The position numbers and the translations under genes are program-made. DNA of 49,740 nucleotides, taken from the NCBI GenBank assembly GCA_023137185.1, contig JAGLPS010000018.1, positions 1-49,740 on the forward strand, given 5' to 3'. Positions 1,551-49,679 of the stretch are shown here, piece by piece. This stretch comes from Minisyncoccota bacterium. Its GTDB lineage: Bacteria; Patescibacteriota; Minisyncoccia; Phycocordibacterales; JAGLPS01. The notes below the pieces were generated by a model. It did no database searches. It saw nothing but the letters and a program-made list of their open reading frames with translations, and was not told where the DNA came from. How positions within the stretch are numbered: position 1 is the stretch's first letter; each line of letters begins with the position of its first letter.

Positions 1551-3263
1551 TTACTCTAATATGGCCTTGATACGCCGCGCGCCCGCCGAGACAGCTTCTT
1601 CTTTTTTGATTTTGAATTTTCCCAAGATTCCAGTACGTTCAACGTGAGGGCCCCCGCAAAACTCTTTAGAAATAGCATTGCCTTCTTTGTTTTCTATGAA
1701 ATACACCGAAACCGTATCTGGATATTTCGCGCCAAATTCCATTTCCGCCCCTATTTTTTCCGCTTCCTCTCGCGACATTTCACAGCGAGTTACAGAAAGA
1801 TTTTGGGAGATGTGATTATTTACAACGTCTTCAACCTGTTTTTTCTCCTCATCGGTCATTTTTCTTCCAAAAGAAAAATCTATGCGCAAGCGTTCCTCGG
1901 TAATATTGCTTCCCCTTTGTTTTACGTTTTTTCCCAAAACTTCCTGAAGCGTGGCGAGAAGTAAATGGTGCGCAGTATGGAGTTTTACCGTTTTTTCATT
2001 GTGGCTCGCAAGTCCCCCCTTAAACATTCCAGCAGACGAGGTACGTGAAAGCTCTTGGTGTTTTTTAAATTTCTTTTGGAAATCTTCTTCGTCTATGATT
2101 ATGCCTTTTTTTCGCGCCAATTCTCTTGTGTATTCAATTGGAAACCCGTAGGTAGTAAAAAGTGTGAAGGGGTCCTCTCCCTTTTCAAATTGTTTTAAAC
2201 CAATAAAGAGCGTCTTTCTGAATCTTTCTTCTTCTTTCTGGATCTCCCCTAAGATGGTCTCTTTTTGATGCAGCAATTCAGGATATTGTTTTTTGTAATT
2301 TTCTATGACAACTTCCGCAATTGAAGATTTAGATTTGTCTGTGTGGGTAATTTTTCGAATTAAGCGTCTTAGAACATACCCTCTTTCGGTATTAGAAGGG
2401 GTTACCCCGTCTGCAATCACAAAGACTGCTGTACGAATATGGTCAGCAATAATTCTTTTTGCACGCTCATCAGAAAATTCATCGTACTGTTTAGTAATTT
2501 CCCACATTACCGGAGTAAACAAATCTGTTTCAAAAACATTGTTCTTTTTCTGCAAAACCATCGCGAGACGCTCAAGTCCCATTCCCGTATCAACACCTTT
2601 TACCGCGAGCGGTTCATATTTCCCTTCGCGAGTTTTGTAATATTCATTGAAAACGATATTCCAAATTTCAACGCCATCTATATATATTTCGGTTGTCGGA
2701 CCGCACGGACCTTCTTCTCCCGTAGGACCCCAGAAATTATCTTCGCGGTTGTGATTTTTGATTGTTACATCAGGAGCAATCTTTTTCCAAGCCTCTTTTG
2801 ACTCATCATCAGCAGAAATCTCATTATCCCCTTCAAATACAGAAACATAATCTATCGTAAGCTTTAGTTCCTTTGTAATAAACTCATACGCGTATTCAAT
2901 CGCTTTTTCCTTTCCATAACCGCCAAAAGAAAAGTTTCCAAGCATTTCAAAAAAAGTAAGGTGGGTGTCATCGCCCACTTCGTCAATATCTCCAGTACGA
3001 ACACATTTTTGTATTGTTGCGACATCTTTTGTTCCAAAATCTCGTATAGCATTTTCCGATGCCGTATAGTACGGCTTAAACTGCTGCATACCCGCAGTCG
3101 TAAAAAGCGTTTTCAAAGATTCGGAGGGATTATCAGAAACAAGAGACGTAGAGGGCAGAATAACGTGCCCCCTTTTTTTAAAAAAATTTAAAAATCGTGA
3201 ACGGATTTTTGCAGAGTCCATTTCATCAGAAGTTTTTATTTTTTTGTCTTCCGTGTTTTCCAT
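1551..3263 (-). CDS. alaS: alanine--tRNA ligase, compact 570-aa form
   Basis: FTTAGMQQFKPYY class II core; editing-domain HxxxH (HTAHHLL) and CxxxH (CGGPHV) motifs. Confidence 0.93.
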   Translation of the reverse strand: MENTEDKKIKTSDEMDSAKIRSRFLNFFKKRGHVILPSTSLVSDNPSESLKTLFTTAGMQQFKPYYTASENAIRDFGTKDVATIQKCVRTGDIDEVGDDTHLTFFEMLGNFSFGGYGKEKAIEYAYEFITKELKLTIDYVSVFEGDNEISADDESKEAWKKIAPDVTIKNHNREDNFWGPTGEEGPCGPTTEIYIDGVEIWNIVFNEYYKTREGKYEPLAVKGVDTGMGLERLAMVLQKKNNVFETDLFTPVMWEITKQYDEFSDERAKRIIADHIRTAVFVIADGVTPSNTERGYVLRRLIRKITHTDKSKSSIAEVVIENYKKQYPELLHQKETILGEIQKEEERFRKTLFIGLKQFEKGEDPFTLFTTYGFPIEYTRELARKKGIIIDEEDFQKKFKKHQELSRTSSAGMFKGGLASHNEKTVKLHTAHHLLLATLQEVLGKNVKQRGSNITEERLRIDFSFGRKMTDEEKKQVEDVVNNHISQNLSVTRCEMSREEAEKIGAEMEFGAKYPDTVSVYFIENKEGNAISKEFCGGPHVERTGILGKFKIKKEEAVSAGARRIKAILE

Positions 3264-6490: not shown

Positions 6491-6640
6491 CTTGGAAGCT
6501 CGGCTTCCAAATAAAAGCCTAAAAATGTGGTGTAATATGTTTTTACTTGTTACTTGGAACTACTTGGAAGCCGGGCTTCCAAGTAGTTCCAAGTACGGTT
6601 TTGGACACTCAATGTCCAAATTTGTGCAAGTGTCCAAAAT
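6491..6640 (-). repeat. composite intergenic repeat: TTTGGACAC hairpin, 45-nt TTGGAAG palindrome, ATTACACCACA box, TTGGAAGC hairpin
   Basis: hairpins at 6491-6510, 6551-6595 (22-bp stem) and 6599-6620; box at 6526-6536. Confidence 0.8.
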
Positions 6641-15020: not shown

Positions 15021-15114
15021 AAATTACACCACATTTGGAAGCTCAACTTCCAAATGTGGTGTAATTTTATGTGTTTTAGGCATTCCGGACACTTTTGGAC
15101 ACTCAGTGTCCAAA
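15021..15114 (-). repeat. composite intergenic repeat (47-nt palindrome including the ATTACACCACA box, plus TTTGGACAC hairpin)
   Basis: AAATTACACCACATTTGGAAGC-TCAA-CTTCCAAATGTGGTGTAATTT (15021-15067) and TTTGGACACTCAGTGTCCAAA (15094-15114). Confidence 0.8.
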
Positions 15115-19363: not shown

Positions 19364-21118
19364 ATGGAACTGAATTTCATTTTTAATTTGAGTCTGATTG
19401 CAAATATTGTAAGTAGTGGGGTTGTCGCTCTCTTTATTCTTTTTACTACCTACAAAGAAGATCCCGCCGCGCGAAAATTTACACAAATAGCGTTTGCTAA
19501 TGCCGCATGGACATTATTTTACCTTCTCGGACAATTACTGCCCAATCCTCAAGATGCATTACTTGTTTTTAAATGGGGAATTTTTTTCCTTATCATACTT
19601 GCGTTCGCCTTTTTAGCTTTCACAATACGAAGTATAGAAAAATTTACAAAAAAGTCTTACAAAGTCTGGTTTCGGATTGGACAAGCGATCAAATTCTTTT
19701 TTCTCGCGCTTATCACCCTCGACATTGTTTTTGGAACAGAACTTCTTGTAAAAAACATTACTCATATAAAAACATGGGGTGTGCTTTGGCCTGATGCGGG
19801 ACGCTTTTTTATCCCCTATCTTGTGTATTTTATGGGTTGTTTCACCATTGGGTTTTTGTTGATTCTCTTTGCGGCGACACACATAGAAGAAAAAGAGCGC
19901 AACAAAATCAAATACCTTAACTGGGCAGCTATCCTTGCAGGCATTGGTGGTTCTACATTGTATTTAATGTGGTACGACATACCTTTCCCTCCAGTTGGAG
20001 GATGGGTAATTCCTGTGTATATCTTAGGACTGTTTTACTCAATCACTAAATTCAAACTTTTCAATATGAGGGTTATTACCACAGAACTGTTCACCCTCAC
20101 TATTTGGATGCTTATGTTTGGACAGATCCTTCTTTCAACCAACATAGAGCTTTTTATTCTTGATAGTGTTATTTTTTTAGTAACGATATTTTTCGGTCTG
20201 TTAACCATACAAAATAGTATCGCTACTGAAAAACAACGGGAGGAACTTGAAAAGGCAACAAGAAAACTTGATAAAACAAATCACAAGCTTTCCGACCTTA
20301 ATCAGAATCTTCAACAAAAAGTTGACGAGCAGACAAAAGAAGTACGGAAAGCATACGAAATTGAAAAGGAGGCGCGTATTGAACTTGAAAAATTAGACAG
20401 GGCAAAGAACAGTTTCCTTCTCACAACCCAACATCACCTGCGGACGCCACTTACTGTTGTAAAAGGTTTCCTTGATCTTTCTACACACGAAGAAAACAAT
20501 GTGCAAATTCGTTCGTATATGATAAAGGCGACAAAAGCAATCAACAGTATGGCAGAACTTGTAAATGAATTTCTAAACGTTTCCCAGCTTGAAGTCGGTG
20601 AGACGATGCTTAATCCCCAACCGACGAATATTGCTAATATCGTTTCAGAAATACAAGGTGAACTTAAACTTGCGATAAAAGAGAAAGATCTATCGTTTGC
20701 TTTAGACTTTAGTGAAGAAGCGCAACATACCAAGGCTATTATTGATTCCAAAATGATAAAAGCGGCGCTCTATAATCTTATCGATAATGCAGTGAAATAC
20801 ACGCCACACGGAAAAATTACAATTATCGGAGAAATATACACTCACCCTATTGAAAAAACAGAAATGCTGCGACTAAAGATTAAAGATACGGGAATAGGAA
20901 TTAGAAAAGAAGATTTGAAAAATGCGTTTCAACATTCTTTTGAGAGAGGGGTAGAAGCAGAAAAAGCAAATAAAACTGGAAAAGGGATAGGATTAATTCT
21001 TTCCAAAAATATAATACAAGCGCATCGCGGAAATATTTTTGTTAACTCAGAGGGGGTTGGAAAAGGGACAACGCTTACGGTTGAAATTCCAATCGGTGTT
21101 AAGCGATTGTGGAGATGA
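19364..21118 (+). CDS. sensor histidine kinase with N-terminal multi-TM sensor (paralog 1)
   Basis: H-box HHLRTPLTVV, N-box DNAVKYT, G-boxes DTGIGI and GKGIGL; about 7 TM helices. Confidence 0.85.
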   Translation: MELNFIFNLSLIANIVSSGVVALFILFTTYKEDPAARKFTQIAFANAAWTLFYLLGQLLPNPQDALLVFKWGIFFLIILAFAFLAFTIRSIEKFTKKSYKVWFRIGQAIKFFFLALITLDIVFGTELLVKNITHIKTWGVLWPDAGRFFIPYLVYFMGCFTIGFLLILFAATHIEEKERNKIKYLNWAAILAGIGGSTLYLMWYDIPFPPVGGWVIPVYILGLFYSITKFKLFNMRVITTELFTLTIWMLMFGQILLSTNIELFILDSVIFLVTIFFGLLTIQNSIATEKQREELEKATRKLDKTNHKLSDLNQNLQQKVDEQTKEVRKAYEIEKEARIELEKLDRAKNSFLLTTQHHLRTPLTVVKGFLDLSTHEENNVQIRSYMIKATKAINSMAELVNEFLNVSQLEVGETMLNPQPTNIANIVSEIQGELKLAIKEKDLSFALDFSEEAQHTKAIIDSKMIKAALYNLIDNAVKYTPHGKITIIGEIYTHPIEKTEMLRLKIKDTGIGIRKEDLKNAFQHSFERGVEAEKANKTGKGIGLILSKNIIQAHRGNIFVNSEGVGKGTTLTVEIPIGVKRLWR

Positions 21119-21127: not shown

Positions 21128-21268
21128 GCTATCCGTATTTTCTTGCTAGAAAATCGGACAGCCCGGCCTCGCGCCGTCGCGCTCCGGCCTTCGATTCCCA
21201 CGAATGCGTCGCATTCTCCAAAATAGACACAAGAAAAAACTCCCCGAAGGGAGCCTTTTCTTGTGTTG

Positions 21269-21341
21269 TGGAGATGATGGGATTCGAACCCACTACCTCA
21301 GCTATGCCATAGCCGCGCTCTACCAATTGAGCTACATCCCC
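21269..21341 (-). tRNA. tRNA-Ala(GGC)
   Basis: hand-folded 73-nt cloverleaf, anticodon loop ATGGCAT, G3:U70, TTCGAAT T-loop; CCA not encoded. Confidence 0.9.
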
Positions 21342-22267: not shown

Positions 22268-22296
22268 GCTTGCGCAACTTGTCCTCCTAAATTTTG

Positions 22297-22369
22297 TGGA
22301 CCGTGGGGAATTCGAATCCCCGACCTCTGCAATGCGAATGCAGCGCTCTACCAACTGAGCTAACGGCCC
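22297..22369 (-). tRNA. tRNA-Ala(CGC)
   Basis: hand-folded 73-nt cloverleaf, anticodon loop TTCGCAT, G3:U70. Confidence 0.9.
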
Positions 22370-22535: not shown

Positions 22536-22641
22536 TCTTACAGGTTCTGTACACCTTGTGGATTTTTCAGAAAAAATCTCACAAGGTCTTTCGGCACTCC
22601 AAGTATTCGCGCCTCAACCTTTACCTACCTAAATTTTTCTG

Positions 22642-22712
22642 TCGGGATGCCGGGAATCGAACCCGATCCTTACGCACCCGAAGCGTATATACTACCGGTA
22701 TACTACATCCCG
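22642..22712 (-). tRNA. tRNA-Pro(CGG)
   Basis: hand-folded 71-nt cloverleaf, anticodon loop TTCGGGT, C1:G72, A73. Confidence 0.85.
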
Positions 22713-27129: not shown

Positions 27130-27429
27130 TTAATAACTTCGCCCCATAGAAGCAAAAATCGCTTCTCCTTCGCGGCAGCCCTTGCATAAACATTTATCGC
27201 CATATTCTGGCCGATATTCTACCTCATTAGTGCTTCCGCAAGTATCACATTTTTTTGCTTTCTTAATTTTACACTCTTCGCAGTGCCCTTCTGGCACTCT
27301 TGAGGGACAAACAGGCAATTTTTTGAAATCGTCTTTTGTTAACTTATGTCTGCAAAAGCAGCAAAAATTAGAGTCAGGAAAAAATATAGTCCGCTCGCAA
27401 TTTGGACAAACAAATGCTTTCTCTCCCAT
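27130..27429 (-). CDS. Cys-rich zinc-ribbon protein
   Basis: CPNC...CCFC, CEEC...CDTC and CLCKGC pairs; AAAAGGAGG SD upstream. Confidence 0.5.
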   Translation of the reverse strand: MGEKAFVCPNCERTIFFPDSNFCCFCRHKLTKDDFKKLPVCPSRVPEGHCEECKIKKAKKCDTCGSTNEVEYRPEYGDKCLCKGCREGEAIFASMGRSY

Positions 27430-27543
27430 TTCTGTCCTCCTTTTTTAGGGTTCAATTTTCTAGCTGAAAATTAGCACAGCAAACTTATAAGGTCAAACTC
27501 AAATTTCACATACATCCAAACGCTGTGGACCCTAGCGGATTTG

Positions 27544-27612
27544 TCCCGATATAATTTATTATATCGCGGATCCTCGATTTTTCTAAAAGTATCAACTTTT
27601 GGAAAATCGGGG
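27544..27612. repeat. 69-nt structured insertion in the T loop of the split tRNA (between U55 and C56, +/-1)
   Basis: TCCCGA...TCGGGG termini; 48-nt core identical to 27941-27988. Confidence 0.8.
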
Positions 27613-27632
27613 AACCGCTGACCTCCTCATTG

Positions 27633-27881
27633 TCCCGAAGAACAAGAAGTGGCAACGACTATGTTCTTCGCGATCCCGTGAATAATGAACGATGGAGGCG
27701 GAAGTTTTTGAGCATTTTGGTGGACCCTAGGAGATTCGAACTCCTGACCTCCTCATTGCAAATGAGGCGCTCTACCAACTAAGCTAAGGGCCCACCAAAA
27801 GGCTCAACTAATTTGCATAAAATGCACTTTTGTTAACGGGATCTCGAAAAATATATTCACTTCGTTCATTATTTTTCGGGA
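27633..27881. other. 249-nt insertion in the anticodon loop (G35/C36) of the split tRNA, carrying the intact tRNA-Ala(UGC)
   Basis: TCCCGAA...TTCGGGA termini, hairpins next to both ends, GATCCCG/CGGGATC and GAATAATGAACGA/TCGTTCATTATT pairings around the nested tRNA. Confidence 0.7.
27718..27793 (-). tRNA. tRNA-Ala(UGC), CCA encoded
   Basis: hand-folded 76-nt cloverleaf, anticodon loop TTTGCAA, G3:U70. Confidence 0.92.
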
Positions 27882-27885
27882 CAAA

Positions 27886-27905
27886 CCTGCCTGCCGGCAG
27901 GCAGG
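27886..27905. repeat. 20-nt perfect GC-rich palindrome CCTGCCTGCCGGCAGGCAGG inserted between nt 31 and 32 of the split tRNA
   Basis: perfect palindrome; related to CCTGCCTACCGTAGGCAGG at 33704-33722. Confidence 0.8.
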
Positions 27906-27918
27906 TGAGGCGCTCTAC

Positions 27919-27989
27919 TCCCGAAAATCACTTGAGATTTTCGCGGATCCTCGATTTTTCTAAAAGTATCAACTTTTGGAAAATCGGGA
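27919..27989. repeat. 71-nt structured insertion in the D loop of the split tRNA (between G18 and G19)
   Basis: TCCCGA...TCGGGA termini; 48-nt core identical to 27564-27611. Confidence 0.8.
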
Positions 27990-28071
27990 CAACTAAGCTA
28001 AGGGCCCCCTTATTCAGAAAAGTTTTTATACTTTACTAAAAAATCCCCTGCGGGACAAAATCCATTCTACC

Positions 28072-29037
28072 TTATTTCCTAGTCAGCGCAAGAGTAACAA
28101 GATGGTCCAAAAAGTGAGGGAACTCCGTTCCTCCCTCCGCAAGCGCTTTTGGAAGAAGGGACTCGGGGGTAAGCCCCGGAAGAGTGTTTGTTTCCAAAAG
28201 ATAAACACCGCGAGGAGAAATTATGAAATCCGAACGCGAGTAGTGGCGCAAGTGGAGCGCGTTATGCGCCTCTTTCGCCGCATATTGAATTTCATTCTTT
28301 ACATCCCTTTCAAAATGCGCGGGACAAATTTCTTGGCTCTCACCGCTGTATTTCGCGTTGTAGTCAAAAAACTCGCTTGTTTCAGGCTGAATAATTTCAA
28401 TGGGAAACAACGGATATAATTTTTCTCCTCTAAAATTTTCAACCACCCCACAGGAAGCTTCGCGTCCGCGGATAAATTCTTCAACAAGCGCCGACGGAGA
28501 ATGCGTAAGCGCTTCCGCGACCGCGTCCTCAAGCTCTGGAAAGCTTCTGACAATCCGCACCCCGACCGACGAGCCTGCCGAAGCCGGTTTTACGACACAA
28601 GGATGCGGAAAGTTTTTAAAAATATCAAGAAGTATCTCTTTAGATACAGTGTCTTTTTTTACGACAATATGTCGGGGCATTTTAAGACCACGATTTTCAA
28701 ACGCTCTTTTGGAGAGAACTTTGTTCATTCCAAGAGCCGAACCGAAAACTCCCGAGCCCGTATACGGAACGCTAAAATTATCAAGAAACCGCTGAACTTT
28801 GCCGTCTTCCCCATACGCCCCGTGCAAAGCGTTGAAAATGACATCTACTCTCTTCAACACTCTTTCAGGATTGCGAGGGACACCTCCGCTATGCCACGTG
28901 CCGTCTTTTGAAATCAAGATATCGTGACCAACATATTTTTCAGGTAAGTGTTTCAAAACACTTGCTCCAGTATTAAGAGAGACTTCATATTCATTTGAGG
29001 GACCTCCTCTAATGACTCCAACAACTATCTTAGACAT
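28072..29037 (-). CDS. ddl: D-alanine--D-alanine ligase
   Basis: EYEVSLNTG and ALHGAYGEDGKVQ motifs plus an ATP-grasp C-terminal half. Confidence 0.92.
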   Translation of the reverse strand: MSKIVVGVIRGGPSNEYEVSLNTGASVLKHLPEKYVGHDILISKDGTWHSGGVPRNPERVLKRVDVIFNALHGAYGEDGKVQRFLDNFSVPYTGSGVFGSALGMNKVLSKRAFENRGLKMPRHIVVKKDTVSKEILLDIFKNFPHPCVVKPASAGSSVGVRIVRSFPELEDAVAEALTHSPSALVEEFIRGREASCGVVENFRGEKLYPLFPIEIIQPETSEFFDYNAKYSGESQEICPAHFERDVKNEIQYAAKEAHNALHLRHYSRSDFIISPRGVYLLETNTLPGLTPESLLPKALAEGGTEFPHFLDHLVTLALTRK

Positions 29038-33664: not shown

Positions 33665-33778
33665 GTATGCCGCGAAAGCTTCCGAGCTTTCATGGCATAC
33701 AAGCCTGCCTACCGTAGGCAGGTCGAAGTCAAACTATAGGTCAATACCGCCCCGCCTACGGCGGGGCGAGAGACCTAT
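33665..33778. other. cluster of three GC-rich hairpins in an AT-rich spacer
   Basis: 33665-33700 GTATGCC..GGCATAC; 33704-33722 CCTGCCTACCGTAGGCAGG; 33736-33778 ATAGGTC..CGCCCCGCC-TAC-GGCGGGGCG..GACCTAT. Confidence 0.7.
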
Positions 33779-42658: not shown

Positions 42659-42750
42659 TTGGAAGCTCTACTTGGAAGCCGAGCTTCCAAGTAGAGCTTC
42701 CAAATGTGGTGTAATAATTTTACGGCTTTTGAACACTGAGTGTCCAAAAA
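42659..42750 (-). repeat. composite intergenic repeat (45-nt TTGGAAG palindrome, TGTGGTGTAAT box, TTTTGAACAC/GTGTCCAAAA hairpin)
   Basis: 21-bp stem TTGGAAGCTCTACTTGGAAGC/GCTTCCAAGTAGAGCTTCCAA at 42659-42703; box at 42705-42715; hairpin at 42727-42750. Confidence 0.8.
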
Positions 42751-46420: not shown

Positions 46421-46445
46421 ATTATCGAGGTTCAACCTCGATAAT
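46421..46445. repeat. REP palindrome ATTATCGAGGTTCAACCTCGATAAT
   Basis: perfect copy 5 nt after the stop of paralog A. Confidence 0.9.
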
Positions 46446-46991: not shown

Positions 46992-47016
46992 ATTATCGAG
47001 GTTGAACCTCGATAAT
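46992..47016. repeat. REP palindrome ATTATCGAGGTTGAACCTCGATAAT
   Basis: perfect copy upstream of paralog A, on the flank of the AbiE pair. Confidence 0.9.
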
Positions 47017-49654: not shown

Positions 49655-49679
49655 ATTATCGAGGTTGAACCTCGATAAT
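49655..49679. repeat. REP palindrome ATTATCGAGGTTGAACCTCGATAAT
   Basis: perfect copy upstream of paralog B. Confidence 0.9.

Follow-up and report, generated by a model that had tools for sequence, protein, structure and literature searches.

A tRNA-Ala gene split by four insertions

On the minus strand of the window (the whole 49.7-kb stretch of DNA analyzed here), the segment running from 28007 to 27526 is a tRNA-Ala(UGC) gene, the resident copy downstream of ddl, split by four flush, self-complementary insertions. Insertion points were numbered against the intact tRNA carried within one of the insertions (the inner tRNA) and against the uninterrupted ortholog of locus L005. E1, a 71-nt double-hairpin element (DHE), lies between G18 and G19 of the outer tRNA (27919 to 27989, minus strand); a perfect 20-nt palindrome, CCTGCCTGCCGGCAGGCAGG, lies between nucleotides 31 and 32 (27886 to 27905); E2, a composite element of 249 nt, interrupts the anticodon loop between G35 and C36 (27633 to 27881, minus strand), at a TTG^CAA sequence, the caret marking the insertion point; and E3, a 69-nt DHE, separates U55 from C56 (27544 to 27612, minus strand). 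The outer tRNA is left as minus-strand fragments comprising nucleotides 1 to 18 (27990 to 28007), 19 to 31 (27906 to 27918), 32 to 35 (UUUG; 27882 to 27885), 36 to 55 (27613 to 27632), and 56 to 73 (27526 to 27543), the last with no encoded CCA after it. When the elements are excised in silico at their exact ends, the joined pieces form a flawless tRNA-Ala(UGC) cloverleaf in which G3:U70 is present and position 57 is a purine. The corresponding empty site, an uninterrupted tRNA-Ala(UGC) after ddl, is found in L005 and L008, and the D-loop is likewise uninterrupted in L248 and L249. An initial annotation of the window had recognized the insertions in the D-, anticodon, and T-loops of one tRNA, a placement that both reference genes uphold; it had underrated or overlooked the palindrome and a complete tRNA inside the 249-nt insert. 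The ten large window ORFs that were scanned are ordinary bacterial genes.

E1 and E3 have in common an identical 48-nt core, as first reported (27564 to 27611 and 27941 to 27988; no such match arose in 100 shuffles), together with their ends, which on the plus strand read TCCCGA...TCGGGA in E1 and TCCCGA...TCGGGG in E3; on the tRNA-sense strand, the first base of E3 is a C where the DHE family has a T. At an equal internal position, each carries a hairpin that differs in sequence yet is self-complementary, the two versions being ATATAATTTATTATAT and AAAATCACTTGAGATTTT. The terminal inverted repeat proposed for these elements stands, but the single closing helix that it was thought to form does not: the best fold places TCCCGA..TCG(A)GGA next to TCC(G)CGA..TCGGGA, two hairpins that meet at GGATCC. 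Since one hairpin is exactly common to E1 and E3 while the other is wholly different, their relationship needs an exchange of modules and not simple copying. Both elements have a G+C content of 35 to 38%, with stems made mostly of A and T.

E2 has ends of the E1/E3 type with a hairpin beside each of them, in agreement with the earlier description, and most of its length is accounted for by a tRNA and hairpins. It can be parsed into a hairpin unit at 27842 to 27881, a TCCCG...CGGGA unit that holds the inner tRNA, and a further hairpin unit at 27633 to 27673; over 37 nt, the first of these hairpins matches one from the L045 DHE at 89% identity. The cargo is an intact tRNA-Ala(UGC) with an encoded CCA (27718 to 27793, minus strand; detected by ARAGORN and scoring 72.8 bits as an Rfam tRNA), whose leader and trailer prolong the acceptor helix. 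Its T-stem is AGGAG/CTCCT, whereas the outer gene and the syntenic L005 ortholog both have AGCGG/CCGCT. The outer fragments are pristine, G57A (still a purine) being the sole change from the L005 ortholog. The missing CCA of the outer gene was considered as a sign of decay and dropped, given that an encoded CCA is likewise missing from three further tRNA genes of the window. With the fragments pristine and the CCA uninformative, the window sequence alone is compatible both with a very recent relic and with a gene that is still used after splicing, and cannot tell the two apart.

The double-hairpin elements form a dispersed family

Searches with an exact 24-mer of the shared core returned no match in genome_contigs or metagenome_contigs. 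The wider search for copies that had been envisaged became productive once the conserved frame, and not the exact core, served as the query. This frame (TCCCGA-hairpin-TCGAGGA followed directly by TCCNCGA-hairpin-TCGGGA), searched with free hairpin interiors as CCCGA-N-TCGNGGATCCNCGA-N-TCGGGA, matched at least 120 loci in JGI metagenomes and at least 119 in GTDB genomes, against fewer than 10 chance matches per scan by our own estimate. At least about 200 copies with proper hairpins are present in Patescibacteria and Bacteroidota; some genomes hold several, with at least six in one Bacteroidales MAG. A viral collection of 2.9 million contigs yielded a single match, which makes carriage by phages unlikely. 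Within the 49.7-kb window, no further DHE was recovered by the regular expression, by the centre motif with 2 mismatches, or by an unfiltered covariance model (CM) search.

The elements span 62 to 95 nt. Each sets two hairpins side by side, and the 6 bp at the foot of each hairpin are conserved (TCCCGA...TCG(A)GGA followed by TCC(N)CGA...TCGGGA). The sequence common to the copies is a 26-nt frame only, made up of both ends and the centre, whereas the stems are hypervariable: pairwise identity in the hairpin interiors is 42 to 55%, versus 40 to 50% in shuffled sequences, and yet 60 to 67% of these interiors is paired, versus 20 to 32% after shuffling. In an alignment of 41 sequences, 97.3% of the cells are paired, versus 75% in shuffles (0 of 500 reach 97.3%), and sliding the partner column by 1 to 3 positions as a control lowers pairing to 27 to 62%. 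Cells changed on both sides number 285, versus 12 changed on one side, and G-U pairs are so scarce as to indicate complementarity at the level of DNA. Stems are nevertheless inherited in part, as a recurrent hairpin lineage with an AAATC-TTT-GATTT apex occurs in 51 of 122 copies. E1 can be aligned with members of the family (alignment A1), and model R1 gives 55.3 bits (plus strand) and 50.2 bits (minus strand) on E1 and 51.6 and 45.6 bits on E3, scores to be read with both elements being part of the training alignment. The view that the two elements are homologous, structured, covarying, mobile as DNA, and members of a family is hence sustained.

Rfam, at both gathering and E-value thresholds, reports only tRNAs. 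The literature that we searched on CPR tRNA introns, on GIY-YIG proteins with tRNA, on MITEs and hairpins, on UPF0213, and on Bacteroides repeats contained no account of a DHE family in bacteria, the nearest parallels being the mitochondrial DHEs and T4 SegB only. E1 and E3 are copies of a widespread, small, double-hairpin family of mobile DNA that has apparently gone undescribed.

Insertion sites

No copy among 121 is flanked by direct repeats of 4 nt or more, which bears out the reported lack of a target-site duplication. The companion claim of no shared flanking word has to be abandoned, as the family-wide flank consensus is TTG^CAA around the element, with G directly before TCCCGA in 62% and C directly after TCGGGA in 70%. 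The three tRNA sites in the window, TTG^GTA, TTG^CAA, and GTT^CAA, each present the full consensus or one half-site, and the preferred target coincides with the anticodon loop of tRNA-Ala(UGC) (U33-U34-G35^C36-A37-A38). In another organism (L042), DHEs occupy the same three tRNA positions as in the window.

Targeting of hairpin loops, as initially suggested, is not seen across the family: the junction falls in a hairpin loop in 33% of cases, versus 29% for random positions (p=0.23), and the reconstructed empty sites are as unstructured as random DNA (MFE of -6.45 versus -6.72, p=0.36). Only 28 of 129 copies have a tRNA-like flank, and most lie outside tRNA genes, often just 5' of start codons by our own reading of the flanks. 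The proposed appeal to the elbow contact between G18/G19 and U55/C56, a property of the folded RNA, is likewise unneeded for a sequence-directed insertion at the DNA level. DHE insertion is into double-stranded DNA, flush and duplication-free, with a preference for TTG^CAA-like sites.

Association with tRNA genes and a small GIY-YIG nuclease

Intact tRNA genes lie within 300 nt of 36 of the 129 DHEs, versus 6.5% of bases overall; in the genome set, the count is 22 of 84. A cassette of fixed order is found repeatedly in related loci: a DHE is followed by a small GIY-YIG nuclease gene and then by an intact tRNA, and pieces of a displaced tRNA of that type lie on either side. Among the 29 GIY-YIG ORFs listed in DHE loci (Pfam PF01541, E values of 1e-14 to 1e-18), 17 have a DHE no more than 400 nt upstream (15 of them at 13 to 53 nt), 18 have an intact tRNA downstream on the same strand (no more than 43 nt away in 14), and 16 have both; the chance values for the upstream and downstream placements are about 0.03 and 0.02, respectively. 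For about 40% of the GIY-YIG ORFs, the regular expression identifies no DHE in the vicinity, and about 88% of the DHEs have no nuclease gene within 300 nt. The encoded proteins, of 81 to 98 aa, are bare catalytic domains with no obvious DNA-binding domain, and their nearest solved relatives are the UPF0213 proteins BH0048 and EF2693, ahead of I-TevI. No GIY-YIG homolog is encoded in the 49.7-kb window.

Nesting of one tRNA within another of the same isoacceptor is found in L025, L036, L042, L092, L073, L075, and L110, among others, with a GIY-YIG ORF at the equivalent position in the first six of these and in others. The architecture is E2-like in L025, L036, and L042, with the ORF, and in L110, which is ORF-less; the window copy is at best an ORF-less derivative of the GIY-YIG cassette. 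In some of these loci, the outer copy is visibly decayed, with two anticodon-stem mismatches in L036 and a non-complementary anticodon stem in L110, while 5' portions alone and tandemly arrayed pieces occur in L092, L114, L087, L048, and L052. When single DHEs were removed and the sequences were run through ARAGORN, a tRNA emerged in only 1 of 129 cases, showing that the hosts of the tRNA-embedded copies are fragments or genes disrupted more than once, not otherwise intact genes. The L050 site was considered as a possible tmRNA and set aside, there being no call before or after excision.

Origin of the nested locus

Taking these findings together, we consider it likely that E1 and E3 are non-autonomous DHEs, that E2 brought a replacement tRNA, that the inner tRNA is functional and the outer one an unspliced relic, and that a GIY-YIG nuclease acted in trans. 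This proposal builds on the observed family membership, structure, and target preference of the elements, on their association with the cassette, and on the empty site in relatives. Under it, the tRNA-Ala(UGC) gene already present after ddl would have been struck at the anticodon loop, the ideal target of the family, by the invader E2, one hairpin loop of which would have held an entire substitute tRNA-Ala(UGC). Two plain DHEs would then have entered the disrupted gene, one in the D-loop (at TTG^GTA) and the other in the T-loop (at GTT^CAA), and an unrelated mini-palindrome would have settled between nucleotides 31 and 32. The inner tRNA is presumably the working gene at present, and the outer gene most likely a recent relic, which we infer is not spliced. 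In the fuller relatives, the cargo-bearing element also encodes the 81- to 98-aa GIY-YIG nuclease directly 5' of the cargo tRNA. We infer that this enzyme probably makes the break at the target or mobilizes the hairpin ends, and the window copies would depend on its being supplied in trans.

Certain observations count against such a role for the nuclease, namely, the lack of a GIY-YIG homolog in the window and the many DHEs with no nuclease nearby. If tRNA genes are its target, the putative nuclease would also have to spare the cargo tRNA. We know of no GIY-YIG protein that acts as a transposase. The broader idea that the DHE, the GIY-YIG gene, and the tRNA together constitute a new class of bacterial mobile element, in which a minimal structure-specific nuclease mobilizes hairpin-ended DNA for precise, duplication-free insertion at TTG^CAA, the anticodon loop of an essential tRNA gene included, in which a replacement tRNA held in a hairpin loop of the element offsets the harm, and of which the plain DHEs are non-autonomous derivatives, is offered as a tentative possibility that we would not bet on.

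A different view, to which we assign a small but appreciable chance, is that the DHEs do not transpose at all: they could be filler left by break repair (fold-back or template switching) or hairpins useful to the host, such as terminators, mRNA stabilizers, or barriers to recombination between duplicated tRNA segments, with only the GIY-YIG-tRNA cassette spreading, by homing. Stem interiors that are near-random and yet perfectly complementary are what templated fold-back synthesis would give, and the pairing in E1 and E3 of one exactly common hairpin with one wholly different hairpin is in keeping with it. Further, the cassette DHE sits at variable positions (10/11 to 19/20) in the 5' tRNA fragment, just 5' of the nuclease ORF, and splits a direct repeat through which the ORF could otherwise be lost. 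A precedent for homing is T4 SegB, a GIY-YIG homing endonuclease encoded in a tRNA gene cluster. As described in PMC2330249 and PMC13096335, SegB cuts tRNA genes in the DNA of a related genome and thereby favors the inheritance and segmental amplification of the neighboring region. Both systems place a small GIY-YIG gene among tRNA genes, and partial duplications and arrays of tRNA segments occur here too; SegB is phage-borne, whereas the present cassette is cellular, and its proteins are bare domains tied to a double hairpin and to a cargo tRNA nested in the target tRNA. What speaks against filler is inherited sequence, in the form of the conserved 26 nt and of recurrent hairpin lineages (the apex common to 51 of 122 copies and the 89% match between the E2 and L045 hairpins), as well as dispersal, since copies occupy numerous unrelated locations, favor a particular target, and can occur several times within a genome.

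RNA splicing of the outer gene is unlikely, and we give it little credence. In this scenario, the insertions would be true introns cut at their flush helix bases by an unknown bacterial endonuclease and religated (e.g., by RtcB), the cell making two tRNA-Ala species. The perfect cloverleaf obtained on excision is consistent with this, as is the use of the same three loop positions in L042; moreover, the T-stems of the outer and inner genes differ by two compensatory pairs, so that decay of a copy does not by itself account for the outer gene. Archaeal tRNA introns, for which non-canonical positions and transposition were described by Fujishima et al. 2010 (cited in PMC10714607), offer a parallel, as they too can be several per gene, in the D-, anticodon, and T-loops, with related sequences in different tRNAs (PMC10714607). 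Those introns form a bulge-helix-bulge (BHB) recognized by the splicing endonuclease, whereas the elements here have a bacterial host, flush junctions, and many copies outside tRNAs. Hand-threading of both orientations on the window junctions gave no BHB with a 4-bp central helix, a 6-bp helix starting right at each flush junction, and an Rfam E-value scan of 27400 to 28100, which covered introns and ribozymes including the group I core, returned only tRNA above noise. The almost strictly Watson-Crick stems (12 one-sided versus 285 two-sided changes) are atypical of RNA structures, most copies are outside tRNA genes, and the orientation relative to the tRNA varies (L042 versus L025 and L036). 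In addition, an intact tRNA of the same kind adjoins the disrupted one in nearly all tRNA-associated cases examined, with L050 a possible exception, and this too sets the elements apart from archaeal introns; many disrupted copies are truncated or arrayed fragments incapable of forming a tRNA, and the anticodon stems of the L036 and L110 outer genes are broken.

The initial annotation had instead likened the insertions to IS200/IS605-type PATEs, which Y1 HUH transposases move as single strands into hairpin loops, and had pointed, while claiming no direct link, to a RAYT of this superfamily encoded at 674 to 1378 (Y1_Tnp, Pfam E value of 1.4e-07). REP/RAYT and IS200/IS605 systems indeed resemble the DHEs in being small palindromic repeats that make no target duplication and for which hairpins, here present beside both ends, are essential. 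The REP arms of this RAYT, ATCGAGG/CCTCGAT, equal the arms of the DHE centre, and model R1 has a weak 20-bit match at the REP inside the RAYT ORF. However, the RAYT is surrounded by its own palindrome, TATCGAGGTTSAACCTCGATA, present in 8 copies in the window that are not DHEs, and tblastn with the RAYT found no match in the 239 DHE loci (1.68 Mb), where the co-occurring gene is the GIY-YIG nuclease; this lack of co-occurrence already largely refutes the link. IS200/IS605 ends are asymmetric, with subterminal hairpins and devoid of terminal inverted repeats, and on one strand a fixed tetra- or pentanucleotide lies 5' of the insertion point, whereas DHEs have terminal inverted repeats, dyad symmetry of the whole element, a symmetric TTG^CAA target, and no preference for hairpin loops. 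A RAYT origin is a faint prospect.

An assembly artifact, or a local duplication made by the assembler, is practically out of the question: the locus is repeat-rich and the contigs of two relatives end inside the same tRNA, but two independent assemblies from other samples, L001 (ERZ23498471) and L002 (ERZ23498485), reproduce the same 730 nt at 100% identity, the Logan contig L003 agrees as far as its own end, and many unrelated organisms display a matching architecture.

Comparison with other small repeats

The elements have the features by which DHEs are defined, namely, two adjacent stem-loops, short length, and dispersal in intergenic regions and RNA genes. Fungal mitochondrial DHEs, known from Allomyces, Schizosaccharomyces octosporus, and S. 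osmophilus, are likewise composed of two adjacent stem-loops, dispersed in intergenic regions and RNA genes, and potentially mobile (Paquin et al. 2000, as summarized in PMC10085805). The mitochondrial elements are G+C-rich and organellar, whereas those reported here have A+T-rich stems, belong to free-living or episymbiotic bacteria of two phyla, and are distinguished by the frame TCCCGA / TCGAGGATCCNCGA / TCGGGA, by the TTG^CAA target, and by hairpin loops able to hold a nuclease gene and a tRNA gene. Mitochondrial DHEs were reportedly also found by Paquin et al. to be associated with mobile endonuclease ORFs.

Being short, non-coding, multicopy, and bounded by terminal inverted repeats, DHEs also recall bacterial MITEs, but they present neither a target-site duplication nor derivation from an autonomous element with a known transposase. 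MITEs normally make such duplications, and their copies share sequence, whereas DHE copies have only the 26-nt frame in common, with hypervariable stems. Copies in non-hairpin contexts with target-site duplications had been named as the mark of an ordinary MITE; we see no hairpin-loop preference, yet no duplications either. Rickettsia palindromic elements and bacterial MITEs are short palindromic repeats that enter RNA genes and, in frame, protein genes, and a comparable case is the in-frame chain of DHE-like hairpins inside uvrC of L008.

Implications

If our reading of the locus is correct, it exemplifies a selfish-DNA strategy, not found in the literature searched, in which an essential and highly conserved tRNA gene is destroyed at the anticodon by an element that carries its own working copy, the result being tRNA genes nested inside tRNA genes. 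The cassette may also provide a new enzyme-substrate pair, a GIY-YIG nuclease of roughly 85 aa and a 70-nt double hairpin, linked with precise and duplication-free insertion at a 6-bp site, which would be relevant to the mechanisms of mobile DNA and to DNA-insertion tools. On the practical side, tRNA genes of Patescibacteria and Bacteroidota are broken up and duplicated by DHEs, which can mislead tRNA finders, skew in either direction the tRNA counts used in genome-completeness estimates, and break contigs. Their almost strictly Watson-Crick covariation is a useful sign by which covariation screens could distinguish DNA-level hairpins from RNA structures.

A second palindrome family

The 20-nt palindrome in the outer tRNA belongs to a second recurrent family of mini-palindromes, unrelated to the DHEs, of which 17 copies are present in 958 kb of related loci, versus about 0.6 expected by our own estimate.

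A tRNA gene split by four insertions

The window DNA is bacterial, with about 39% G+C, and encodes a D-Ala-D-Ala ligase (Ddl), BipA, LeuRS, AlaRS and an HlyD-type protein; the closest homologues of Ddl carry Patescibacteria or Parcubacteria annotation. Directly upstream of a tRNA-Ala(UGC) gene (28007 to 27526, minus strand; the outer tRNA) lies ddl (28072-29037). The tRNA gene is interrupted by four insertions: E1 (71 nt, 27919-27989, minus strand) separating G18 from G19; CCTGCCTGCCGGCAGGCAGG (27886-27905), a 20-nt perfect palindrome, between 31 and 32; E2 (249 nt, 27633-27881, minus strand) between G35 and C36; and E3 (69 nt, 27544-27612, minus strand) between U55 and C56. Within E2 is a complete tRNA-Ala(UGC) with an encoded CCA (27718-27793, minus strand; ARAGORN; Rfam, 72.8 bits), the inner tRNA. 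When all four are removed in silico, each precisely from end to end, the remainder forms a perfect cloverleaf that includes the alanine identity pair G3:U70. Over 730 nt, the locus is 100% identical in two assemblies of other samples, and a third agrees as far as its contig end, excluding an assembly artefact. Inside a histidine-kinase ORF (19364-21118), ARAGORN also predicts a "tRNA-???" (19962-20053) that would have a 4-base anticodon; it has no Rfam support and is probably a false positive.

A family of double-hairpin elements

The identical 48-nt core that the initial annotation reported in two of the insertions is present in E1 and E3 and never occurs in shuffled sequence. The termini do not close a single helix, as had been suggested; instead, each insertion forms a pair of neighbouring hairpins, TCCCGA-stem-loop-TCG(A)GGA and TCC(G)CGA-stem-loop-TCGGGA, with the junction at GGATCC, here termed double-hairpin elements (DHEs). 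Exact pieces of the core have no match in public genome and metagenome contig collections. A pattern that leaves the hairpin interiors free, CCCGA-N(25-45)-TCGNGGATCCNCGA-N(8-30)-TCGGGA, recovered at least 120 loci in JGI metagenomes and at least 119 in GTDB species genomes, where by our own estimate each scan should give under ten matches by chance, and only one match among 2.9 million viral contigs. Among the matches listed, about 200 copies have properly paired hairpins and several genomes hold multiple copies; the main hosts named in the genome records are Patescibacteria (Yanofsky-, Sung-, Magasanik-, Beckwith- and Tagabacteria, Saccharibacteria and Paceibacterota) and, as the second main group, Bacteroidota, mostly Bacteroidales. 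In the window, every method applied found no DHEs besides E1 and E3, which are ordinary non-autonomous copies within a disrupted gene.

The structural covariation first noticed between these two copies extends across the family. Pairwise identity of hairpin interiors is 42-55% (40-50% for shuffled partners), with 60-67% of interior bases paired (20-32% when shuffled). In a 41-sequence alignment including E1 and E3, 97.3% of cells form standard pairs (75% in shuffles) and the covariation score is 0.504 (control, 0.119), values that none of 500 shuffles reached; sliding the partner column by 1-3 positions as a control leaves 27-62% of cells paired. Two-sided changes occur in 17 of the 33 pairs, with 285 cells showing a two-sided change versus 12 with a one-sided change of the G-U type. 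The elements also have dyad symmetry, many copies fitting the search pattern on both strands, and variable orientation relative to neighbouring tRNAs. Given this symmetry, the variable orientation and the near absence of G-U pairs, we infer that complementarity of the DNA, as a hairpin or cruciform, is maintained rather than an RNA fold.

Target preference

Direct repeats of 4 nt or more, which would mark a target-site duplication, flank none of 121 copies. The family-wide flank consensus is TTG|TCCCGA...TCGGGA|CAA, with G in 62% just before TCCCGA and C in 70% just after TCGGGA. Because the tRNA sequence is known, element boundaries are exact in tRNA-embedded copies, and these identify the flanking G and C as target bases. 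The E2 site, TTG|CAA (U33-U34-G35|C36-A37-A38 of tRNA-Ala(UGC)), matches the complete consensus, and those of E1 (TTG|GTA) and E3 (GTT|CAA) match one half each. It had been proposed that the elements target hairpin loops, with the elbow contact between G18/G19 and U55/C56 as the rationale for the sites. Reconstructed empty sites have no extra structure relative to random DNA, and junctions fall in a hairpin loop in 33% of cases versus 29% for random positions (p=0.23). Loop targeting thus finds no support; sequence preference suffices to explain the three loop positions, rendering the elbow rationale superfluous.

Resident and incoming tRNA genes

An uninterrupted tRNA-Ala(UGC), i.e., an empty site, follows ddl in two relatives, L005 (GCA_030690305.1; Ddl 68% identical) and L008 (GCA_017973895.1; Ddl 70% identical). 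The T-stem AGCGG/CCGCT of the L005 tRNA equals that of the outer gene and differs from that of the inner tRNA (AGGAG/CTCCT); hence, the outer gene is ancestral and syntenic, and the inner one is the newcomer. The sole difference between the outer fragments and the L005 tRNA is G57A. The outer gene has no encoded CCA, which is not evidence of decay because three other tRNA genes in the window (21268-21341, 22296-22369 and 22641-22712) likewise have none; CCA is encoded by the inner tRNA and by the native tRNA-Ala(UGC) of both relatives. The contigs of two further relatives, L248 (2937-2967) and L249 (1983-2013), stop inside a tRNA-Ala right after ddl (Ddl 68-69% identical), with the D-loop uninterrupted at this site before the contig ends; the region may be repetitive or polymorphic there too.

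Association with intact tRNAs and a GIY-YIG nuclease

DHEs and tRNA genes lie close together more often than expected: intact tRNAs are within 300 nt of 36 of 129 DHEs, versus 6.5% of bases, and near 22 of 84 in the genome set. Excision of a single DHE restores a tRNA in 1 of 129 cases, since embedded DHEs sit in tRNA gene fragments, and the neighbouring intact tRNA is of the same isoacceptor type. The recurrent layout, in the sense of the tRNA, starts with a 5' fragment of the displaced tRNA whose D-arm or D-loop contains a DHE, followed by a small ORF and the intact tRNA; it often ends with a 3' fragment of that displaced tRNA, which sometimes has a T-loop DHE. The ORF encodes an 81-98-aa GIY-YIG nuclease (Pfam code PF01541, E 1e-14 to 1e-18); among solved structures, the UPF0213 proteins BH0048 and EF2693 are closest to it, followed by the I-TevI catalytic domain. 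Among the matches listed, 29 such ORFs occur in 1.68 Mb of DHE loci: 17 have an upstream DHE within 400 nt (15 of them at 13-53 nt), 18 have a downstream same-strand intact tRNA (14 within 43 nt) and 16 have both, with chance expectations for the two neighbours of about 0.03 and 0.02, respectively. The tRNAs carried as cargo include Ala (UGC and CGC), Glu, Met, Ile, Pro, Asn and Asp.

At 35|36 in locus L042, the insertion takes the form of a DHE, TCCTGA..ORF..TCGAGGA | TTCTCGA..tRNA..TCGGAA, with the nuclease gene inside its first hairpin loop and the tRNA inside its second, and plain DHEs occupy G18|G19 and U55|C56, exactly the positions seen in the window. The D-loop and 35|36 insertions recur in L025 and L036, a "5' fragment - ORF - tRNA" form is found in L052, L053 and L013, and L110 has a cassette without the ORF in a tRNA-Gly. 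E2 is an ORF-less version of this cassette: over 37 nt, its first hairpin shares 89% identity with one hairpin of the L045 DHE, and its middle unit holds the inner tRNA, with leader and trailer lengthening the acceptor helix. The 49.7-kb window encodes no GIY-YIG homologue.

Tandem units, each joining a tRNA 5' fragment to a DHE and then to the following tRNA fragment, stand upstream of an intact tRNA-Ile or tRNA-Met in L092 (4589-5616), L114 (2924-3173) and L087 (4138-4361), which suggests repeated break-and-repair or segmental amplification. In L050 (199-330), a DHE with an extra TCCCGATAAG half-end before it lies in a tRNA-like 3' domain (...GGTTCGATTCCTTCGCCGCCCACA) that neither ARAGORN nor Rfam recognises as tRNA or tmRNA, whether the DHE is left in place or excised; no intact tRNA copy lies nearby, and an RNA gene may have been disrupted here with nothing to replace it.

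Origin of the insertions

Taking these findings together, we consider it likely that members of the DHE family invaded a resident tRNA-Ala(UGC) gene at the DNA level, leaving a functional inner tRNA and an outer relic. The cargo-bearing E2 would have entered the ideal target in the anticodon loop, bringing a replacement tRNA-Ala(UGC), and two plain DHEs with one hairpin module in common, E1 and E3, would have taken the half-site matches in the D- and T-loops; the mini-palindrome at 31|32 would be unrelated to DHEs. The inner tRNA would then be the working gene and the outer one a young relic, presumably no longer expressed as a tRNA. The GIY-YIG nuclease would probably cut the target or mobilise hairpin ends, and the window copies would depend on nuclease supplied in trans. 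Plausibly, insertion first produces the nested form, from which recombination between duplicated 3' segments would give rise to the "5' fragment - ORF - tRNA" form, and DHEs in the outer fragments may interrupt direct repeats whose recombination would remove the cassette. The family and this nested replacement-tRNA strategy are of specialist interest and directly testable.

That DHEs are instead by-products of repair or hairpins useful to the host strikes us as rather unlikely. Introns removed from the outer tRNA at the RNA level would accord with its pristine fragments; however, BHB geometry is absent, an Rfam scan of the locus found no ribozyme, stem pairing is almost strictly Watson-Crick, orientation varies and many DHEs lie outside tRNAs. 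Further, an intact tRNA copy adjoins nearly every disrupted one examined (L050 is a possible exception) and truncation, arraying or mismatches affect many outer copies (L036, L110, L092 and L114), making introns very improbable. Also very improbable is the proposed IS200/IS605-type mobilization by the RAYT, the Y1 transposase-like protein of the window, given that a RAYT homologue occurs in none of 239 DHE loci among the matches listed, the DHE ends do not fit this architecture and the RAYT has its own REP family.

The closest known systems include fungal mitochondrial double-hairpin elements (PMC10085805), archaeal mobile tRNA introns (PMC10714607) and T4 SegB, a free-standing GIY-YIG homing endonuclease that acts on tRNA gene regions, driving segmental amplification (PMC2330249; PMC13096335), alongside REP/RAYT and Rickettsia-type palindromic elements. 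The bacterial DHEs work most like mitochondrial DHEs and GIY-YIG homing endonucleases combined, being a demonstrated member of neither; they are A+T-rich and bacterial, have their own conserved frame and target, and load genes into hairpin loops. We found no description of this family in the literature searched, whose partial coverage makes an earlier one possible.

Other repeats

Apart from DHEs, the window has eight copies of a palindrome, TATCGAGGTT(G/C)AACCTCGATA (537-620, 1159-1187, 1433-1525, 46425-46441, 46996-47012 and 49659-49675), five of which cluster around the RAYT-like ORF (674-1378), one in frame inside it. It is curious that the arms of this REP, ATCGAGG/CCTCGAT, are those of the DHE centre (ATCGAGG-AT-CCTCGAT), and the REP is a weak match (20 bits) to the DHE covariance model. 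Adjoining the cluster is the AlaRS ORF (1551-3263), which comprises the catalytic and SAD domains in only 570 aa, a short length for a bacterial enzyme of this type.

The CCTGCCTGCCGGCAGGCAGG palindrome, also present at about 33715-33736, represents a second recurrent, G+C-rich family, with 17 copies in 958 kb versus about 0.6 expected by our own estimate (L040, L045, L050, L051, L061, L080, L087, L094, L105, L111, L115, L121 and L125); several adjoin DHEs. A third family comprises perfect 20-22-bp palindromes and tandem repeats rich in TTGGAAG(C) (1-130, 6551-6595, 15021-15067 and 42659-42703). Finally, two in-frame insertions make the UvrC of L008 68 aa longer than that of L005. The first (about 3800-3945 in L008) is a hairpin chain including TCCCGAGTACTCGAGGGA ... 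TTCCTCGAAGAATACTTCTCGGGA that scores 28.5 bits with the DHE model, a palindromic element apparently translated within the protein, like the RPEs of Rickettsia.
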